A stretch of DNA of 64,000 bases, taken from contig CAJURO010000003.1 in assembly GCA_910588985.1 (NCBI GenBank), positions 10,169 to 74,168 on the forward strand, given 5' to 3'. Of this stretch, positions 6,471-32,422 are shown piece after piece; within the stretch, counting starts at the first letter, position 1, and every line of letters starts with the position of its first letter. Under the pieces are notes generated by a model. The model searched no databases. It was not told the DNA's origin and saw only the letters and a program-made list of their open reading frames with translations. The DNA is from an uncultured Eggerthellaceae bacterium. GTDB lineage: Bacteria > Actinomycetota > Coriobacteriia > Coriobacteriales > Eggerthellaceae. The translations under genes were made by a program, and so were the position numbers.

Positions 6471-8240
6471 ATGAGGAGTGAATCAAGAGTGTTCCTTGCT
6501 ACACCATCAGGGTTCAGAGATGTTCTGCCAGATGAGGCACAAGAGCGTGAGCAGATCGTTCGGCGCGTTCAAGATCTGTTCGCTGAGAATGGTTTTCTTC
6601 CGATCGAAACGCCTACGCTTGAGGTCATGGATGTTGTCAACATGGGTTCGCGTCTCTCAAAGACGCCTTTCCGCTTCTTCGATGCACAAGGCGATCTCCT
6701 CGCTCTGAGACCAGATGTCACGTCGCAGGTATCGCGCATGGTTGCATCACGCTTGCCGGATACCGATGAATCCTTGCGATTGCGTTATACCCAGCGTGTC
6801 TTTCGCGAATCTGACCAGGACGGTATGGCTTCTTCGCGTGAGATCACGCAAATGGGGGTCGAATGCATCAACGAGGATTCACCAAGCGTTGATGCTGAGC
6901 TTATCGGGCTTATGATAAAGGCGCTCCATGCTGCTGGTGTGTCCACCCTCTTGATCGGCCTTGCCTCTGTTAGCCCCTTACGTCAGCTTCTCGATCGCGC
7001 AGGAGCTGATGAGCAATGGAAGAGCAGCATTCTGGAGGCATACCATACCTCTGATTTCGTCCTTCTTGATGAGCTCTGCAACAACGTTATCCAGGCAAAG
7101 GGAGCTCCAAGTACGATCGCGCCTGCCTATGCAGATGCGATAAAGGCGCTCGCGCGAGTTCGTGGTGGGAAGGAAGCTATCGATAAGGCGCGCGCGATCG
7201 CTGCTCCGCTCGGATGCACTGATGGGCTGGATGCGCTTGCTGAGATCTATGAGCATCTGGAAGGCGAGGGGCTTGCTGAGGCCTTGCTGATAGATTTCTC
7301 TATCATCTCGTCGTTCGATTACTATACAGGTGTTGTCTTCGAGTGCTTTTCCCCACACTTGGGAGCTGCTATTGGAAGCGGTGGGCGCTATGACAACATG
7401 ATCTCCGCTTACGGCACGTCTCGTCCAGCAGCAGGTTTCGCGTTCAGCTTGGAACAAGCCATGGCGGCACGCGCTGCTGAGGAGGATCTTTTCGAGACCA
7501 CGTCGCTCAAGGGCTCTGATGACCTATCCTGCGCATCCTCTGAAAAGAAGGACAAGGAAATAAAGGGGAAACGTCCTTTGAGGATAGCGGTTCCCAAAGG
7601 AGCGCTCAGCAACGATGCGATCACAACGCTCTCTGCTGCAGGGCTTGATGTTGGCTCTCTGGCAAATCCTGGTCGTCAGCTTGTCATAGAGACACCTGAT
7701 GTTCACTACATCATAGTGAGACCTTCCGATGCTCCTGCCTTCGTTGCCTTCGGGGCAGCTGATTGCGGCATATGCGGCAAGGATTCGCTCCTTGAAGCAG
7801 ATGCGTCTGTCGTGGAGCTCGTCGACCTTGGCTTCGGTGCGTGCCGTTTCGTCGTGGCCGAGCCTCATGGCACTGCTGCACGCATCAATGAGCGTTATCG
7901 TAAGCTCGGCTCCATTCGCATTGCTACGAAGTATCCTAATGTGACACGAGCCTACTATGCGCGCACGGGCGTGCAGGTCGACATCGTGAAGCTTCATGGC
8001 AACATTGAGCTTGCTCCTCTCTGTGGCATGGCCGATCGCATCGTCGACATCACCGCTACGGGCAATACGCTTCGCCAGAACGACCTTGTGATCGTTGACG
8101 AGGTGCTCGCCTCTACTGCACGCTTCTTTGCGAATGCCGCGTCCTTGCGTACTGATGAGCGTGTTGTGGAACTTGCCCGTAAGCTTATGGATGTTCGTGA
8201 TGAGCAGGATTTTTTGCCGATCGCAGGCGGGGATTTTTAA
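6471..8240 (+). CDS. hisZ-hisG: Fused HisZ (regulatory, HisRS-like) and short-form HisG ATP phosphoribosyltransferase
   Basis: N-terminal ~340 aa is HisRS-like without an anticodon domain (PSGFRDVLPDE, LRLRYTQRVFR, GGRYD). A Ser/Lys-rich linker follows. The C-terminal ~220 aa is HisG-S-like (LRIAVPKGAL, DCGICGKD, IATKYPN, LHGNIELAPLCGMADRIVDITATGNTLRQN). An alternative GTG start at 6489 has a better-spaced GAGGAG. Confidence 0.85.
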   Translation: MRSESRVFLATPSGFRDVLPDEAQEREQIVRRVQDLFAENGFLPIETPTLEVMDVVNMGSRLSKTPFRFFDAQGDLLALRPDVTSQVSRMVASRLPDTDESLRLRYTQRVFRESDQDGMASSREITQMGVECINEDSPSVDAELIGLMIKALHAAGVSTLLIGLASVSPLRQLLDRAGADEQWKSSILEAYHTSDFVLLDELCNNVIQAKGAPSTIAPAYADAIKALARVRGGKEAIDKARAIAAPLGCTDGLDALAEIYEHLEGEGLAEALLIDFSIISSFDYYTGVVFECFSPHLGAAIGSGGRYDNMISAYGTSRPAAGFAFSLEQAMAARAAEEDLFETTSLKGSDDLSCASSEKKDKEIKGKRPLRIAVPKGALSNDAITTLSAAGLDVGSLANPGRQLVIETPDVHYIIVRPSDAPAFVAFGAADCGICGKDSLLEADASVVELVDLGFGACRFVVAEPHGTAARINERYRKLGSIRIATKYPNVTRAYYARTGVQVDIVKLHGNIELAPLCGMADRIVDITATGNTLRQNDLVIVDEVLASTARFFANAASLRTDERVVELARKLMDVRDEQDFLPIAGGDF

Positions 8241-18046: not shown

Positions 18047-19330
18047 ATGGAAAATGAAGCATTACAGAGAGCGCGTCGCGAGTACGACAACGTGGAAGAG
18101 CGCTATGTCGCCACGCTTGAAGAAAAGGGCCTCATCTTCGCACCACGTTTCTCAGATGAGAAGCGCATAGCAGAGTTGAGAGAGCGCCTCGCTCAGAAAG
18201 GCGTCATCGCGCGGAACGCAGGCGCCTCCCTTTCTTGTGGGTTTCTGTCAAAAGCGTGTGTCGAATGCACGGGGCAAAACGGGTCAGAGACATTCTCGAC
18301 AACCTTCAAGTGCCACCGTGACTGCTACTTTTGCTTTAACAAGAACCAAGCAGACTACGATCGGTTCTTTCGCGAGGGCTGCCCTTGGCAAGAGGGCTTG
18401 GAGCGTTGCGCAGCTGAGAATGAGAGCTTAGCTTGCATTGGGCTCACCGGAGGAGAGCCTCTGCTCGACCTTGAGAATGCGATCGCTCTTCTCAAGCGCG
18501 CGAAAGAGCTCTTTCCCGATGCTCATCTTCGCATGTACACCTCTGGAGATCTCCTTGATGCTCATATTGCTGAGCAATTGCGTGAAGCACATCTTGATGA
18601 GATACGGTTTAGCGTGAAAGATGACGATGATCCTTCCATGAGGGAGCGTGTGCTCAATGCGATGCGCCTTGCAAAGGACTACATCCCAAGCGTCATGGTC
18701 GAGATGCCTGTTGTCCCTGGCAATCTCGAGTACATGAAGGATCTTTTGCGTGATTTCGACGAAATAGGCATTGATGGGATCAACCTGCTCGAGTTCTGCT
18801 TTCCCTTCTGCAATTGGGATGAGTTCGCAGCTCGTGGCCTTCTTCTGAAGAACCCTCCTTTTGAGATCATGTATGACTATGGCTACTCAGGAGGTCTTGC
18901 AGTGGCTGGGTCAGAGGCTGACATCCTTGAGCTTTTCGATTGGGCGCTTGATGAGGGTCTCAGCCTCGGCATCCATTACTGCTCGCTTGAGAACAAGCAT
19001 CGAAGCGAGATCCGTCAAAAGAACGAGCGTGCGCGAACGCTCCATCCCGTGCTCTCTTTCGATGAAGATGACTTCTTCCTCAAATGCTGCAAAGTGTATG
19101 GGGATGATGTCGCCCTCGCGAAGGACGCGCTTGAAGAAGCGGGGTGCACGGACATGCTTGAAAGCCCGGAGGAATGCTCTCTTTCATTTCCGCTCACCTC
19201 GCTCAAGACGGTGTCTGGGCTGAAGCATGACGATGGGACACCGCTCATGCCGCAGATCTGCTCCTTCGTGTATGAAACTGATGAAGAGGGGGCTTACTTC
19301 ATCGATGTTGCCATCAAAGATGCACGGTGA
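18047..19330 (+). CDS. Radical SAM protein of unknown function
   Basis: CX3CX2C motif (FKCHRDCYFCFNKN) with GGEPLL downstream. An additional N-terminal Cys triad is present (SCGFLSKACVEC). 427 aa. Confidence 0.8.
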   Translation: MENEALQRARREYDNVEERYVATLEEKGLIFAPRFSDEKRIAELRERLAQKGVIARNAGASLSCGFLSKACVECTGQNGSETFSTTFKCHRDCYFCFNKNQADYDRFFREGCPWQEGLERCAAENESLACIGLTGGEPLLDLENAIALLKRAKELFPDAHLRMYTSGDLLDAHIAEQLREAHLDEIRFSVKDDDDPSMRERVLNAMRLAKDYIPSVMVEMPVVPGNLEYMKDLLRDFDEIGIDGINLLEFCFPFCNWDEFAARGLLLKNPPFEIMYDYGYSGGLAVAGSEADILELFDWALDEGLSLGIHYCSLENKHRSEIRQKNERARTLHPVLSFDEDDFFLKCCKVYGDDVALAKDALEEAGCTDMLESPEECSLSFPLTSLKTVSGLKHDDGTPLMPQICSFVYETDEEGAYFIDVAIKDAR

Positions 19331-20101
19331 TCATCCAAGCTCGATGGTGTTCGAGAATCGGTACTCTCCGTTCGTGCCGATCACGATGTAGTTCTCAGCT
19401 CCTCCAAATTCTTGATCGCTTGCATCGATGAGATGTACATGAGCGAATACAGAGTGGAGCGCCTCGGTGAACGCGAGCAGCTCACGTGAATCTCCCCTTG
19501 GTTGCTTCACGACAAGGTTCGTCATGTAGAGACCCTTTGGGCGCAGTATGCGACCTATCTGCTCGATGCTCTCTTTTTCGAGGAATGCCTTTGAAACATT
19601 GCATCCTTCAAAAGAGTCATTGATCACCACGTCGTAGCATTGATCAGGAGCTTCTCTTATGACCTGCACGCCATCGGCGACCCAGATATTCATGCGATCT
19701 TGCTCGTTGCGTGCATCAAGATATGCCTCAAGCTTATCAAGGTAGAAGCGCTCTCTTGCGATCTGCACGATGACGGGGTCGATCTCGACCACATCCATGC
19801 GAGCGCTTGAAGAATGTGTGAGGAAATGCTTAGGGTAAGAGAAGCAGCCTCCTCCGATCATAAGCACCTCATCGATCTCAAGGCCATCATCAGCAGCTTC
19901 GTACATGCAATCGAATGCAAGGATGTAGGCAAAGGGAGGAGAGCTCCAATTATCATCAAGGTAGGTGGCGCTTTGATAGGTGCCGTCAAGGCTCAAGACA
20001 CGCACGTAATTACCGAGTGAATCGCAGGTGATGAAACACCGTGCTTCGCCAAACGATGTTTGGAATGTTCGTCTCTCGATGAGGCGCCGAAGCGGGTTCA
20101 T
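19331..20101 (-). CDS. Spermidine-synthase-fold (PABS-like) SAM/dcSAM-dependent transferase
   Basis: VLMIGGGCFSYPKHFL, MDVVEIDPVIVQIARERFYL and YDVVINDSF blocks parallel the SpeE family. Start trimmed to the ATG overlapping the upstream gene's stop (ATGA), preceded by AAGGTG. Confidence 0.7.
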   Translation of the reverse strand: MNPLRRLIERRTFQTSFGEARCFITCDSLGNYVRVLSLDGTYQSATYLDDNWSSPPFAYILAFDCMYEAADDGLEIDEVLMIGGGCFSYPKHFLTHSSSARMDVVEIDPVIVQIARERFYLDKLEAYLDARNEQDRMNIWVADGVQVIREAPDQCYDVVINDSFEGCNVSKAFLEKESIEQIGRILRPKGLYMTNLVVKQPRGDSRELLAFTEALHSVFAHVHLIDASDQEFGGAENYIVIGTNGEYRFSNTIELG

Positions 20102-20877
20102 GGGCGCACCTTGAAGATGAGATAGCGGTTGAGCTTTCCGCTCTTTCCATCGTCTTGATAATCGGCAACAAGATCGCATCCTTGTGCGCAGGCAACTCCG
20201 ATGAGGTCATCAATCTCGAGATCAGCGAAGGAATGGCAGAATCTGAACGCGTTGGTTTCGTCTTGCCAGTCAAGGAGGTAGTCACCCTGGTCAGTATCGA
20301 TGCCGAATCCTAAGAGATCGCTTCCTCGCTGTGTTGCGCGCTCTGCCTTTTTGCGCATTCGCGGGTCAGATGCGAATTGCCAAAACGATACGCTCATGAA
20401 GCCGTCGGGCGCTGTCTTTTCGATCATCTTAAGAAGCAGATGTTCGCGATCAAGAGCGCAGGGTAGGTGATGCATAAGGCCAAAGCAAGCGACAAGCGCA
20501 CAGGCGGGGATCTTCGCGAACGCTTCAGGTGCGTTGCCATCCCTTGTCGCCTCGTGGATATCCATCTCGAGGAAATCGACGAGAACCCCTTCCAGGCTGC
20601 TTGTCTCTGCAAGAGCACGACAGCTATCGATCGCGTAGGCTTTAAGCGGCTTGTCAGTCATATGAGCGAGCTTGCTCGCAAGGAACTTCTCAAAGCGCAT
20701 ATTGCCGCAACCTATGTCGAGAAGGGAGGGGGCATGGCAGAGCGCATCAGAGCATGCTTGCCAGACGCGATCCCATCCATGCCATGCGAACGTGCGCGTT
20801 TGCGAGAAAGCGTCTGTGACACGTGCGTAGAAATTTGCATTGAGGGCGTTGAGCTGCTCTGCGCGATCGCGATCCAT
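20098..20877 (-). CDS. Trm9/ALKBH8-like class I SAM methyltransferase
   Basis: FYARVTDAFSQTRTFAW, LLDIGCGNMRF, ACFGLMHH, GDYLLDW, FRFCHSFADLEIDDL and NRYLIFK follow the Trm9 block order. Start trimmed to the Met preceded by AGGAAGG; the longer ORF-track version runs into the divergent gene. Confidence 0.7.
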   Translation of the reverse strand: MDRDRAEQLNALNANFYARVTDAFSQTRTFAWHGWDRVWQACSDALCHAPSLLDIGCGNMRFEKFLASKLAHMTDKPLKAYAIDSCRALAETSSLEGVLVDFLEMDIHEATRDGNAPEAFAKIPACALVACFGLMHHLPCALDREHLLLKMIEKTAPDGFMSVSFWQFASDPRMRKKAERATQRGSDLLGFGIDTDQGDYLLDWQDETNAFRFCHSFADLEIDDLIGVACAQGCDLVADYQDDGKSGKLNRYLIFKVRP

Positions 20878-20913
20878 TGCACCTTCCTGTTCCAGACACG
20901 AGCATGATGTAAG

Positions 20914-20919
20914 TATAAT
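20914..20919 (+). promoter_or_regulatory. Candidate -10 hexamer for Elp3 (near-leaderless)
   Basis: TATAAT ends 10 nt before the ATG at 20930 with no Shine-Dalgarno. The complementary strand reads TATACT at 20912..20917, a possible overlapping -10 for the divergent operon. Confidence 0.35.
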
Positions 20920-20929
20920 CGTTAGCATT

Positions 20930-22762
20930 ATGGAGACAGTCATCACCCGCATAGTCCAGAAGGCCCGCGAGAATGGGACCTTGTCTGCGAAGACGATCGA
21001 CCGTCTTCTTCGTGAGAGGTGCGCCGAGCTACATGATGCATCTCGTTCGATCTCCAAACGGACATGCATGGCATATTACGTACGCATCCGCGATGAGCAA
21101 ACTGCGTTTTGGAAATCCCTTGCCATAGATGATGCTACCGATCATGCGATCATGCATTCACTCAGGTCTAAGCCACGGCGTACCGCATCTGGAGTAGCTA
21201 CCATCACGGTATTGACAGCGCCGTTCCCTTGTTCGGCTGATTGCTCGTATTGTCCCAGCGACATTCGCATGCCGAAGAGCTATCTTTCCGATGAGCCTGC
21301 TTGCCAACGAGCTGAACGCAACTTCTTCGATCCTTACTTGCAAATGCATGCGCGTTTGAATGCGCTCCACAGCCTTGGGCACGTCGTCGATAAGGTGGAG
21401 ACGATCGTTTTGGGTGGAACGTTCAGCGAATACCCAGAGTCGTACCGCATATGGTTCGTGACCCAGCTCTTTCGCGCCCTGAATGAATTTGGAGCTGACG
21501 AAGGCGCGCGCGAGGTGGAACGCCGACGTTTGCGGTACAGAGATGCGGGGCTAAGCGGTGATCCCGATGAAAACGCTGAGCGCACACGCTTGCTTCAAGA
21601 AGAGCTCGATGCGCATGTGCTCTCCTACAACAAAGCCTTTGCGTGCGCATATCCCGAAGGTCTTGCCTTTGCGATGGCTGACGAGATAGCAGGCACCTCG
21701 TTTGACAGGCTTCGTGCTGCGCAGGATGCTAATGCTGAAGCTGCTCAGCGCATGGTGGGTCTTGTGGTAGAGACTCGACCTGACAGGATCGATGCTTCGC
21801 ACCTCGCTTCTCTGCGCGCGCTTGGATGCACGAAGATCCAAGTCGGAATCCAGAGCCTTGATGATGGCATCTTGGCACAGAACGTTCGTGGTGCACGGGT
21901 TGAGGATACGGTACGCGCTCTTGAGCTTCTCCGTCTTTTCGGATTCAAGTCTCACGTGCACTTCATGATCAACCTGAAAGGCTCTTGCCCTGCGAAGGAC
22001 CTTGAAGGGTATGGCGAGCTTGTTGGGAAGGCACCATTCAAGCCCGATGAGGTAAAGCTTTATCCTTGTGCGCTTGTGAAGAGCGCTCGTCTCATGGAGG
22101 AGCATTCAGCAGGTGCATGGCGCCCTTACTCAAGAGAAGAGCTTATCGATCTTCTCAGCGCATGCGTGCTTATGACGCCGCCTTACACAAGGATATCCCG
22201 AATGATCCGCGACATCTCTTCTTCTGACATCGTCGCAGGCAACAAGTCGACCAACTTGAGGCAAATGGTCGAGGCAAGGATTCGGGAAGAAGGGGAGAAG
22301 CCCTCCGAGATTCGCATGCGTGAGATCGCCAAGCGACAGATGTCCGTAGAGAAGCTTTCGCTTTCGGAGATTGCGTATAGGACGTCGAACACCGAAGAGG
22401 TGTTCCTCCAATGGACAGATGACGAGGGAACCCTGGCAGCCTTCTTGCGATTGTCATTTCCCGATCAAGAGGCGATCGAGCAAGCGCGCACGACGATGGA
22501 TGGGTTCCCTGCTGAGCTAGGATGCGCGATGATCCGCGAGGTGCATGTGTACGGTCGTGTCTCGAAGCTCCATGAGTCGATCGAGGGAACGCAGCATATA
22601 GGCCTTGGGCGCATGCTCATCGAGCGCGCGTGCAAGCTCGCTCACGAAAACGGCTTTACGCGCATTGGCGTCATAAGCGCTGTTGGCACACGCCGCTACT
22701 ACGAACGACTTGGCTTCGAGCGTTTCGGGCTGTACCATTTCAAAGATCTTGAGACTGGTTGA
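20930..22762 (+). CDS. elp3: Elp3-family radical SAM / GNAT acetyltransferase
   Basis: VATITVLTAPFPCSADCSYCPS, LGHVVDKVETIVLGGTFSEYPESYRIWF and GLVVETRPDRID...GCTKIQVGIQSLDD blocks. C-terminal GNAT: QHIGLGRMLIERACKLAHENGFTRIGVISAVGTRRYYERLGF. Start trimmed to METVITRIVQKA. Confidence 0.9.
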   Translation: METVITRIVQKARENGTLSAKTIDRLLRERCAELHDASRSISKRTCMAYYVRIRDEQTAFWKSLAIDDATDHAIMHSLRSKPRRTASGVATITVLTAPFPCSADCSYCPSDIRMPKSYLSDEPACQRAERNFFDPYLQMHARLNALHSLGHVVDKVETIVLGGTFSEYPESYRIWFVTQLFRALNEFGADEGAREVERRRLRYRDAGLSGDPDENAERTRLLQEELDAHVLSYNKAFACAYPEGLAFAMADEIAGTSFDRLRAAQDANAEAAQRMVGLVVETRPDRIDASHLASLRALGCTKIQVGIQSLDDGILAQNVRGARVEDTVRALELLRLFGFKSHVHFMINLKGSCPAKDLEGYGELVGKAPFKPDEVKLYPCALVKSARLMEEHSAGAWRPYSREELIDLLSACVLMTPPYTRISRMIRDISSSDIVAGNKSTNLRQMVEARIREEGEKPSEIRMREIAKRQMSVEKLSLSEIAYRTSNTEEVFLQWTDDEGTLAAFLRLSFPDQEAIEQARTTMDGFPAELGCAMIREVHVYGRVSKLHESIEGTQHIGLGRMLIERACKLAHENGFTRIGVISAVGTRRYYERLGFERFGLYHFKDLETG

Positions 22763-32336: not shown

Positions 32337-32422
32337 TGGTGCGGGCGAAAGGACTTGAACCTTCACGGGGATCACCCACCAGAACCTAAATCTGGTGCGT
32401 CTGCCAATTCCGCCACGCCCGC
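32337..32422 (-). tRNA. tRNA-Leu (anticodon UAG), CCA-encoded
   Basis: The reverse complement folds as a cloverleaf. Acceptor stem GCGGGCG/CGCCCGC. Anticodon stem CCAGA/TCTGG with loop TTTAGGT (anticodon TAG). Long variable arm, T-loop TTCAAGT, discriminator A, then CCA. Confidence 0.9.

Follow-up and report, generated by a model that had tools for sequence, protein, structure and literature searches.

The wobble uridine (U34) of tRNAs is modified by two unrelated sets of enzymes that share the target position and the physiological role in wobble decoding. One comprises MnmE and MnmG (with MnmC or MnmL/MnmM), which are GTPase and FAD/folate-dependent enzymes that give cmnm5U or nm5U. The other, known from eukaryotes and archaea, comprises Elp3, which makes 5-carboxymethyl-uridine (cm5U34), and the methyltransferase Trm9, which esterifies it to mcm5U34; in metazoan ALKBH8, the methyltransferase domain is fused to another U34-modifying enzyme. 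Here we describe a divergent gene pair for Elp3 and a Trm9-like methyltransferase in a 64,000-nt stretch of DNA, hereafter called the window, which was taken from contig CAJURO010000003.1 (positions 10,169 to 74,168) of an uncultured Eggerthellaceae bacterium of the class Coriobacteriia (assembly GCA_910588985.1).

Most bacteria produce xm5U34 by means of MnmE and MnmG, and a phylogenomic study from 2018 found both proteins to be absent only in Actinobacteria, with the loss inferred at the root of that phylum (PMC6063277). According to a review of Elongator from 2020, Elp3 occurs in a single bacterial clade, Dehalococcoides, and these sole recognised bacterial hosts are hard to grow (PMC7663514); a paper from 2026 mentions Elp3 in "numerous bacteria" without detail (PMC13315578). 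All characterised Elp3 proteins act on U34 of tRNA (PMC7663514, PMC13315578). In archaea, Trm9-Trm112 of Haloferax volcanii makes mcm5U, and a gene cluster of Elp3 and Trm9 has already been noted in Sulfolobus solfataricus (PMC6144793). Our literature search returned no paper that links Elp3 with Coriobacteri* or Eggerthella, and the papers found for Elp3 and Actinobacteria were unrelated, as judged by their titles and abstracts. A bacterial pair of this kind is not known to have been described before, as a preliminary description of the window, made from the sequence alone, had stated.

The pair and the region between the two genes are as follows:

20930..22762, plus strand: Elp3 gene (ATG at 20930, frame ending at 22762, 610 aa, from the list of open reading frames)
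20098..20877, minus strand: gene for a Trm9-like class I S-adenosylmethionine (SAM) methyltransferase (inner ATG at 20877, frame ending at 20098, 259 aa)
20878..20929, no strand: divergent intergenic region of 52 nt between both start codons, read from the sequence

Both reading frames are in the list with the coordinates and lengths first given for them, the start-to-start distance is the 52 nt reported in the preliminary description, and the peptide blocks quoted there were all found in the two translations. Identical starts were called independently on a public contig of 98% identity, again giving a methyltransferase of 259 aa and an Elp3 of 610 aa. The reading that we favour, at a probability of roughly two in three, is that the two proteins would form a module for the synthesis of cm5U34 and its subsequent methyl-esterification to mcm5U34. 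It agrees with the preliminary description, and the computational checks suggested there came out in its favour. Coriobacteriia with the pair would then probably make mcm5U-type tRNA modifications, which have not yet been shown in bacteria.

A full-length Elp3

Judged by its sequence, the 610-aa protein is a full-length member of the Elp3 family, as had been proposed at the outset. It scored 415.4 bits against the NCBIfam model TIGR01211 (ELP3), the curated cut-off of which is 350, and positions 18-521 of the 522 in the model were aligned to residues 39-606. An N-terminal region is followed by the radical-SAM domain (PF04055, Radical_SAM, 44.3 bits), the Radical_SAM_C domain (PF16199, 67.7 bits) and a C-terminal GNAT/KAT domain (PF00583, 25.3 bits, cut-off 20.7), all of which scored above their Pfam cut-offs. 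The cysteine triad of the [4Fe-4S] type (CSADCSYC, C-x3-C-x2-C) is located at residues 101-108 (nt 21230..21253) and an acetyl-CoA motif of the Q/RxxGxG type (QHIGLGRML) at residues 555-563 (nt 22592..22618), with further family blocks at residues 277-285 (GLVVETRPD) and 588-596 (RRYYERLGF).

The best matches in PDB were solved Elp3 structures (6ia8, 5l7j and 8ptx, E=1e-70 to 1e-75), which span archaeal, bacterial and eukaryotic proteins. The protein shares the combination of radical-SAM and KAT domains with Elp3 of Dehalococcoides mccartyi (5L7J) and Methanocaldococcus infernus (6IA8), to which it was matched at E~1e-74 to 1e-75, but is longer than these, with 610 aa compared to chains of 446-518 residues. 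As read from PDB matches that were split into two stretches, the extra length appears to be N-terminal and, within the radical-SAM domain, in a segment of about 70 aa (roughly residues 180-255). In contrast to the restriction to Dehalococcoides given in the review (PMC7663514), Elp3 is here found throughout the Coriobacteriia, with a methyltransferase partner dedicated to it. Automatic annotation has given homologues in Adlercreutzia, Eggerthella-type organisms and Atopobiaceae the name Elp3 or "tRNA carboxymethyluridine synthase", and "histone acetyltransferase" in older database records, so that this half of the finding is correct but already annotated in public databases.

A methyltransferase family related to Trm9

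Searches with the 259-aa methyltransferase as a single sequence were uninformative, and the proposed relation to Trm9 was unsupported until a family profile had been built. A Pfam scan gave only generic matches below threshold (Methyltransf_23, 25.1 bits, with the cut-off at 27), an NCBIfam scan gave no match, and a word-indexed homology search recovered 2 relatives only. The blocks recognised in the protein are FSQTR (residues 24-28), LDIGCGN (53-59, motif I), MHH (135-137), LLDWQ (201-205), FRFCH (211-215) and LNRY (249-252).

An exhaustive hidden Markov model (HMM) search of 1.84 billion protein representatives yielded 911 relatives at E<=1e-30, and family members carried no names in the protein collection. 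Using a profile based on an alignment of 103 family sequences (A2), the best match among the 177,635 sequences in PDB was Trm9 of Yarrowia lipolytica (5cm2_Z, E=2.8e-9), and the next matches were assorted methyltransferases at E=3.5e-4 and worse, that is five orders of magnitude behind. A set of 120 Trm9 sequences was retrieved with the aligned part of the 5cm2_Z chain as the query. The family HMM matched all 120 of these fungal sequences (E 5e-13 to 8e-5 at Z=1e6), and an HMM of Trm9 matched many members of the family with up to 49 bits and neither of the two other methyltransferase-fold proteins encoded in the window.

A comparison of the A2 profile with a profile of 48 fungal Trm9 sequences (A3) using hhalign gave a probability of 99.0% and E=6.7e-18 over 202 aligned columns, covering almost the full length of both families. 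The segments aligned outside the generic Rossmann core included the N-terminal element Y..A.xFSxTRxxW as well as RxxH and N-x-[YW] in the C-terminal part. As a control, the family was compared with another Rossmann-fold family, that of the neighbouring SpeE-like protein, and the probability was 1.8%. The yeast Trm9 blocks that the preliminary description had quoted agree with the consensus of the 48 fungal sequences.

At the profile level, the homology to Trm9 is, as far as sequences tell, specific and goes beyond the likeness among methyltransferases in general. The initial suggestion of a Trm9-like enzyme stood for the family, with 5cm2_Z as the best match and the hhalign result given above, and was not borne out by the single sequence, which had no significant match to Trm9. 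The profile searches placed the product of 20098..20877 in no family of small-molecule methyltransferases. In common with fungal Trm9 (Saccharomyces cerevisiae; Y. lipolytica 5CM2) and the ALKBH8 methyltransferase domain, the family has a class I SAM methyltransferase fold with profile homology over nearly the full length, the FSxTRxxW element, an HH motif, two invariant Trp, RxxH and an Asn, together with a link to Elp3-dependent cm5U chemistry, which is here one of gene linkage and fusion. It differs in having a bacterial host and no specific Pfam or NCBIfam model, and in an insertion of its own, a helix at about residues 172-189, as well as an N-terminal helix that is absent from the crystallised Trm9. 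We suggest that the methyltransferase be regarded as a member of a new family that is sister to Trm9 and spans the Coriobacteriia.

The structure predicted with AlphaFold2 from the family alignment (pLDDT 96.3, pTM 0.93) yielded 891 class I methyltransferase matches in PDB at E<=0.001 using Foldseek, of which the top ones were assorted small-molecule methyltransferases. The predicted fold thus confirms that the enzyme is a class I methyltransferase without separating the families, and because scores were similar across class I methyltransferases, the fold comparison carries no weight for membership in Trm9.

We also considered the conversion of cmo5U to mcmo5U by CmoM (SmtA) in gamma-proteobacteria, which is analogous to the proposed reaction in that SAM is used to methyl-esterify a carboxymethyl-type side chain of U34 (PMC4737166). 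The CmoM pathway depends on CmoA and CmoB rather than Elp3. A CmoM-like reading was rejected since there was no CmoM chain among the 56 matches of the family profile in PDB (E<=1) and since the family is linked to Elp3 instead of CmoA or CmoB.

Conservation of active-site residues

Letoquart et al. found that replacement by Ala of R29, D72, H116, W145, W168, R241, Y243 or N271 in S. cerevisiae Trm9 (ScTrm9) abolishes or strongly reduces the activity, with about 10% retained in the Y243 mutant, whereas substitutions at K31, R122, E148 and Q149 are neutral (PMC4678810). A published model places R29, R241 and H116 at the carboxylate and N271 and H115 on the uracil, with the two Trp stacked on bases (PMC4678810). 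We transferred the yeast positions to the family by script through the hhalign alignment. Residues R29, D72, H116, W145, W168, R241 and N271 correspond to R28, D84, H137, W166, W204, R212 and N250, each of which is invariant in all 103 family members, and so is H136, the counterpart of H115. The family positions matching the four neutral residues are variable.

Seven of the eight essential residues are thus retained according to the alignment, so that the active site is kept for the most part, with a single systematic change at Y243 (see below). The combination of invariant essential positions and variable neutral ones is as expected if 5-carboxymethyl-uridine were bound in the same way as in Trm9, and is difficult to square with a methyltransferase that acts on small molecules.

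Linkage and fusion of the methyltransferase to Elp3

To examine the distribution, we probed one genome per species in GTDB with conserved peptides of the family, which showed that relatives of the methyltransferase are encoded in at least 589 species-level genomes. Linkage was scored by tblastn with the window proteins in the best 80 of these at least 589 species-level loci (all loci of this analysis are numbered with the prefix L below), almost all of which are labelled as Coriobacteriia (Atopobiaceae, Eggerthellaceae and Coriobacteriaceae), with a few bins named otherwise. Cultured organisms that carry the pair include Adlercreutzia equolifaciens, Olsenella uli, Lancefieldella parvula, Lancefieldella rimae and Collinsella. 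Three loci with a Coriobacteriia-type pair are in bins labelled Bacteroidaceae, Faecalibacterium prausnitzii and Oscillibacter (L044, L049 and L082); these are probably mis-binned contigs, and hence no sign of a wider distribution.

The pairing, described at first from a single locus, is recurrent. Elp3 is located within 6 kb of the methyltransferase gene in 71 of the 80 loci and is directly adjacent (<400 nt) in 62, of which 58 have the divergent orientation, 2 the tandem order with Elp3 first and 2 the tandem order with the methyltransferase first. With the convergent orientation, four relative arrangements were observed. The genes for ThrH, the aminotransferase, a 427-aa radical-SAM protein and the SpeE-like protein, all of which are neighbours in the window, are missing from most of the 80 loci, showing that the pair is kept while its surroundings change. 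In a relative of 41% identity (L001), the stop codon of Elp3 and the start of the methyltransferase gene overlap.

Three clusters of proteins are fusions of Elp3 with the methyltransferase as the C-terminal part (P0137, 886 aa; P0275, 841 aa; P0276, 869 aa). All are from metagenome assemblies, and they are just 42-43% identical to each other in pairwise comparisons. The P0137 cluster has two members on separate assembly contigs, and the fusion is encoded at L083 (319..2979). The family is in this respect similar to ALKBH8, with the methyltransferase sometimes fused to a U34 enzyme, here Elp3. The fusions and an adjacency that is retained despite rearrangements provide strong evidence of a shared pathway; a functional coupling of the methyltransferase to Elp3 is supported here by this genomic evidence.

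Could the adjacency simply be inherited synteny without a functional link, and the methyltransferase an ordinary class I enzyme acting on small molecules, similar to Trm9 through the shared fold alone? The generic and sub-threshold Pfam matches, the assorted small-molecule enzymes at the top of the Foldseek results and the origin of nearly all 80 loci from one bacterial class are in line with such an explanation. It is largely refuted by the three independent gene fusions, and is further contradicted by the four relative arrangements of a pair that persists as the flanking genes change, by the alignment of Trm9-specific elements beyond the Rossmann core, by the seven invariant essential residues alongside variation at the yeast-neutral positions, and by the probability of 1.8% for the control family. 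We consider inherited synteny to be highly improbable.

The system most similar in organisation is that of archaea, where a stand-alone prokaryotic Elp3 without Elp1, 2 and 4-6 is likewise clustered with a Trm9-type methyltransferase. The archaeal Trm9 is dependent on Trm112 and recognisably orthologous to the eukaryotic enzyme, whereas the family described here occurs in bacteria, has diverged much further (as compared with fungal Trm9) and is in some cases fused to Elp3.

In a comparison of the window with its nearest relatives at species level, four loci from uncultured Eggerthellaceae (L003, L026, L031 and L055), the identities were 38-42% for the methyltransferase, about 40% for the SpeE-like protein and 44-53% for Elp3, versus 78-81% for the flanking aminotransferase and about 70% for ThrH. 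Identities this far below those of the flanking genes indicate a faster evolution of the module than of the housekeeping genes around it.

A proposed route to mcm5U34

By analogy with its family, Elp3 would use its radical-SAM and acetyl-CoA-binding GNAT domains to generate a 5'-deoxyadenosyl radical, activate acetyl-CoA and place the cm5 group on C5 of U34, acting as a stand-alone enzyme in the manner of archaeal and Dehalococcoides Elp3. From the alignment of the Trm9 site, residues R28, R212 and H137 of the methyltransferase are predicted to hold the cm5U34 carboxylate, and N250 and H136 to bind the uracil ring. The enzyme would then move the methyl group of SAM to the carboxylate to give mcm5U34, a step suggested by the remote homology, the active-site conservation and the gene linkage, and the product might later be thiolated to mcm5s2U. 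Divergent transcription from the 52-nt region would co-regulate the two genes.

Several observations weigh against this route. A phmmer search of PDB with the lone methyltransferase gave nothing significant and no Trm9, with WbdD at E=0.35 as the only match, and the Trm9 HMM scored the window protein at just 13.3 bits (E=1.7 at Z=1e6). In the Foldseek comparison, Trm9 (5cm2_Z) ranked 35th at E=1.3e-8, with TM-scores of 0.46 (query-normalised) and 0.62 (target-normalised), and many generic methyltransferases scored alike. The identity to Trm9 was about 15% in the hhalign alignment. Essential residue Y243 of ScTrm9 corresponds to C214, and the position is Cys in 97 of the 103 family members, which on the alignment is a real difference from Trm9. 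In 9 of the 80 loci, Elp3 was not within 6 kb. To our knowledge, every characterised Trm9 enzyme needs Trm112, and a regular-expression motif search, which is a weak test, found no Trm112-like open reading frame when all six frames of the window and of 82 loci were translated and searched; none had been seen in the window in the preliminary description either. Actinobacteria do encode Trm112-like UPF0434 proteins (bioRxiv 10.64898/2026.07.15.738315). Finally, according to the 2020 review, xcm5U34 has yet to be directly demonstrated in any bacterium (PMC7663514).

On present evidence, the methyltransferase would work in the manner of a Trm9. Because the single sequence is unrecognisable as Trm9, the identity is about 15%, one essential residue is systematically different and any dependence on Trm112 is hypothetical, we have not filed it as a Trm9 ortholog.

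Neighbouring genes and alternative products

Two further genes in the window lie next to the pair:

19331..20101, minus strand: gene for a SpeE-fold (spermidine-synthase-like) protein of 256 aa (PF01564, 52 bits; NF037959, 82.6 bits)
18047..19330, plus strand: gene for a radical-SAM protein of 427 aa (matches to PF04055 and PF13353), convergent with the methyltransferase operon

The ATG of the SpeE-like gene overlaps the stop codon of the methyltransferase gene (ATGA), an arrangement of translational coupling. In spermidine synthase, the Asp of the GGGDG motif bears on the use of decarboxylated SAM. This Asp is replaced in the SpeE-like protein, which has GGGCFS in the window and GGGG in relatives, and for this reason the protein may use SAM rather than decarboxylated SAM. 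In about 9 of the 80 loci, the SpeE-like gene lies beside the pair, in more than one arrangement (L003, L026, L028 and L052; also L042, L049, L069 and L075). In Collinsella-type loci it instead follows Elp3 immediately on the same strand, and the encoded proteins have a hydrophobic N-terminal segment that resembles a membrane anchor, as read by eye from the alignment. We regard the SpeE-like gene as a possible accessory of the module, of uncertain membership.

These features bear on an alternative in which the methyltransferase works with Elp3 on tRNA U34 but at a step other than that of Trm9, so that the end product is not mcm5U. For example, another atom of the Elp3-derived side chain or of the nucleoside would be methylated, and the SpeE-like transferase might elaborate the product. 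The systematic replacement of the essential Y243 by Cys would fit such a different step, as would the insertion (helix ~172-189) and the N-terminal helix that distinguish the family from crystallised Trm9, and the SpeE-like gene with its replaced GGGDG Asp, which is co-transcribed here (ATGA overlap) and downstream of Elp3 in Collinsella-type loci. Yet the residues proposed to bind the carboxylate and the uracil (the equivalents of R29, H115/H116, R241 and N271) are all invariant, no more than about 9 of the 80 loci have the SpeE-like gene, and the putative membrane anchor in Collinsella-type loci is ill-suited to a tRNA enzyme. On balance, we think this alternative unlikely.

The 427-aa radical-SAM gene adjoins the pair or a fusion in seven loci (L001, L003, L026, L031, L055, L068 and L083), and in the closest relatives it is convergent to, and often overlaps the 3' end of, the gene for the methyltransferase or the fusion. 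Copies of about 40% identity are found in L037 and L065. A profile search of PDB with this protein gave only generic radical-SAM matches (NifB, MoaA and BtrN, E>=7.6e-6).

The presence of this uncharacterised radical-SAM protein and of the SpeE-like transferase in the cluster of the closest relatives is reminiscent of small-molecule pathways, and raises the question of whether Elp3 and the methyltransferase act on a substrate other than tRNA, such as a metabolite or protein that is carboxymethylated or acetylated and then methylated. The lack of documented xcm5U in bacteria (PMC7663514) and the name "histone acetyltransferase", still used in some databases, may be taken in the same direction. 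Such a substrate is difficult to combine with a full-length Elp3 above the curated Elp3 cut-off, with the Trm9 residues for recognition of uracil and carboxylate that are kept in the methyltransferase, with the modification of tRNA U34 by all characterised Elp3 proteins (PMC7663514, PMC13315578), and with the persistence of the pair in the many loci from which the extra genes are missing. A non-tRNA substrate therefore seems very unlikely.

Genomic setting of the locus

The 52-nt region between the pair contains a perfect TATAAT at 20914..20919, 10 nt ahead of the Elp3 ATG, and GGAAGG, a putative Shine-Dalgarno sequence, on the minus strand (complement of 20883..20888), 5 nt ahead of the methyltransferase ATG. 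The position of the TATAAT box suggests a leaderless or near-leaderless Elp3 mRNA, and the same AT-rich box could also act as the divergent promoter of the methyltransferase gene. A consensus promoter scan found no full sigma-70 consensus (-35/-10 pair) in the gap, and any promoter here is therefore putative.

The GC content at 20-22 kb is 0.542, within the window range of 0.48-0.57. The upstream flank consists of housekeeping genes (gatA/gatB and the his operon), and a gene of the LL-diaminopimelate-aminotransferase type, thrH, a TatD-family gene and the gene for DAHP synthase are also nearby. The GC match and the housekeeping flanks indicate that the Elp3-methyltransferase locus is part of the core chromosome and not an island, and a recent horizontal transfer was rejected on the same grounds.

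Two observations on the remainder of the window are given here. A 589-aa reading frame at 6471..8240 (plus strand) heads the his operon, with hisD, C, B, H, A and F coming after it, and has a HisZ-like match (residues 16-333) followed by a HisG match (residues 370-553). By these matches, its product would be a fused regulatory and catalytic subunit of ATP phosphoribosyltransferase. The sole tRNA gene of the window, at 32337..32422 (minus strand), is for tRNA-Leu with the anticodon UAG, which is a U34 tRNA; tRNA-Leu(UAG) is among the Haloferax tRNAs reported to have an uncharacterised U34 modification (PMC6144793).

Implications for wobble modification in Coriobacteriia

What is new is that Elp3 is paired with a methyltransferase throughout a bacterial class, that the two are sometimes fused, and that a large methyltransferase family without a name is assigned to Trm9-like chemistry. 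Neither the annotation of Elp3 nor the logic of the pathway, which is known from eukaryotes and archaea, is new. The module probably supplies an xm5U34-type modification that is otherwise lacking in Actinobacteria after the loss of MnmE and MnmG, as reported at the level of the phylum, and it would then be a non-orthologous replacement of these enzymes.

A more far-reaching scenario is that Coriobacteriia, which often inhabit the gut, mouth and vagina of humans, swapped the lost MnmE and MnmG for a self-sufficient, Trm112-free system of Elp3 and a Trm9-like enzyme, in some lineages as one fused polypeptide, and that the SpeE-fold transferase, where co-transcribed, elaborates mcm5 or cm5 into an undescribed wobble nucleoside. 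In this full form we hold the scenario to be distinctly unlikely.

The pair is found in cultured and medically relevant Coriobacteriia, which makes the question of xcm5U34 in bacteria testable. It offers an answer to how wobble uridines may be modified in a branch of the Actinobacteria, for which MnmE and MnmG have been reported as lost, and provides a large unnamed methyltransferase family with a specific and checkable functional hypothesis. If the methyltransferase is independent of Trm112, the enzyme and its natural fusions with Elp3 would represent a minimal system for studying and engineering the formation of mcm5U.

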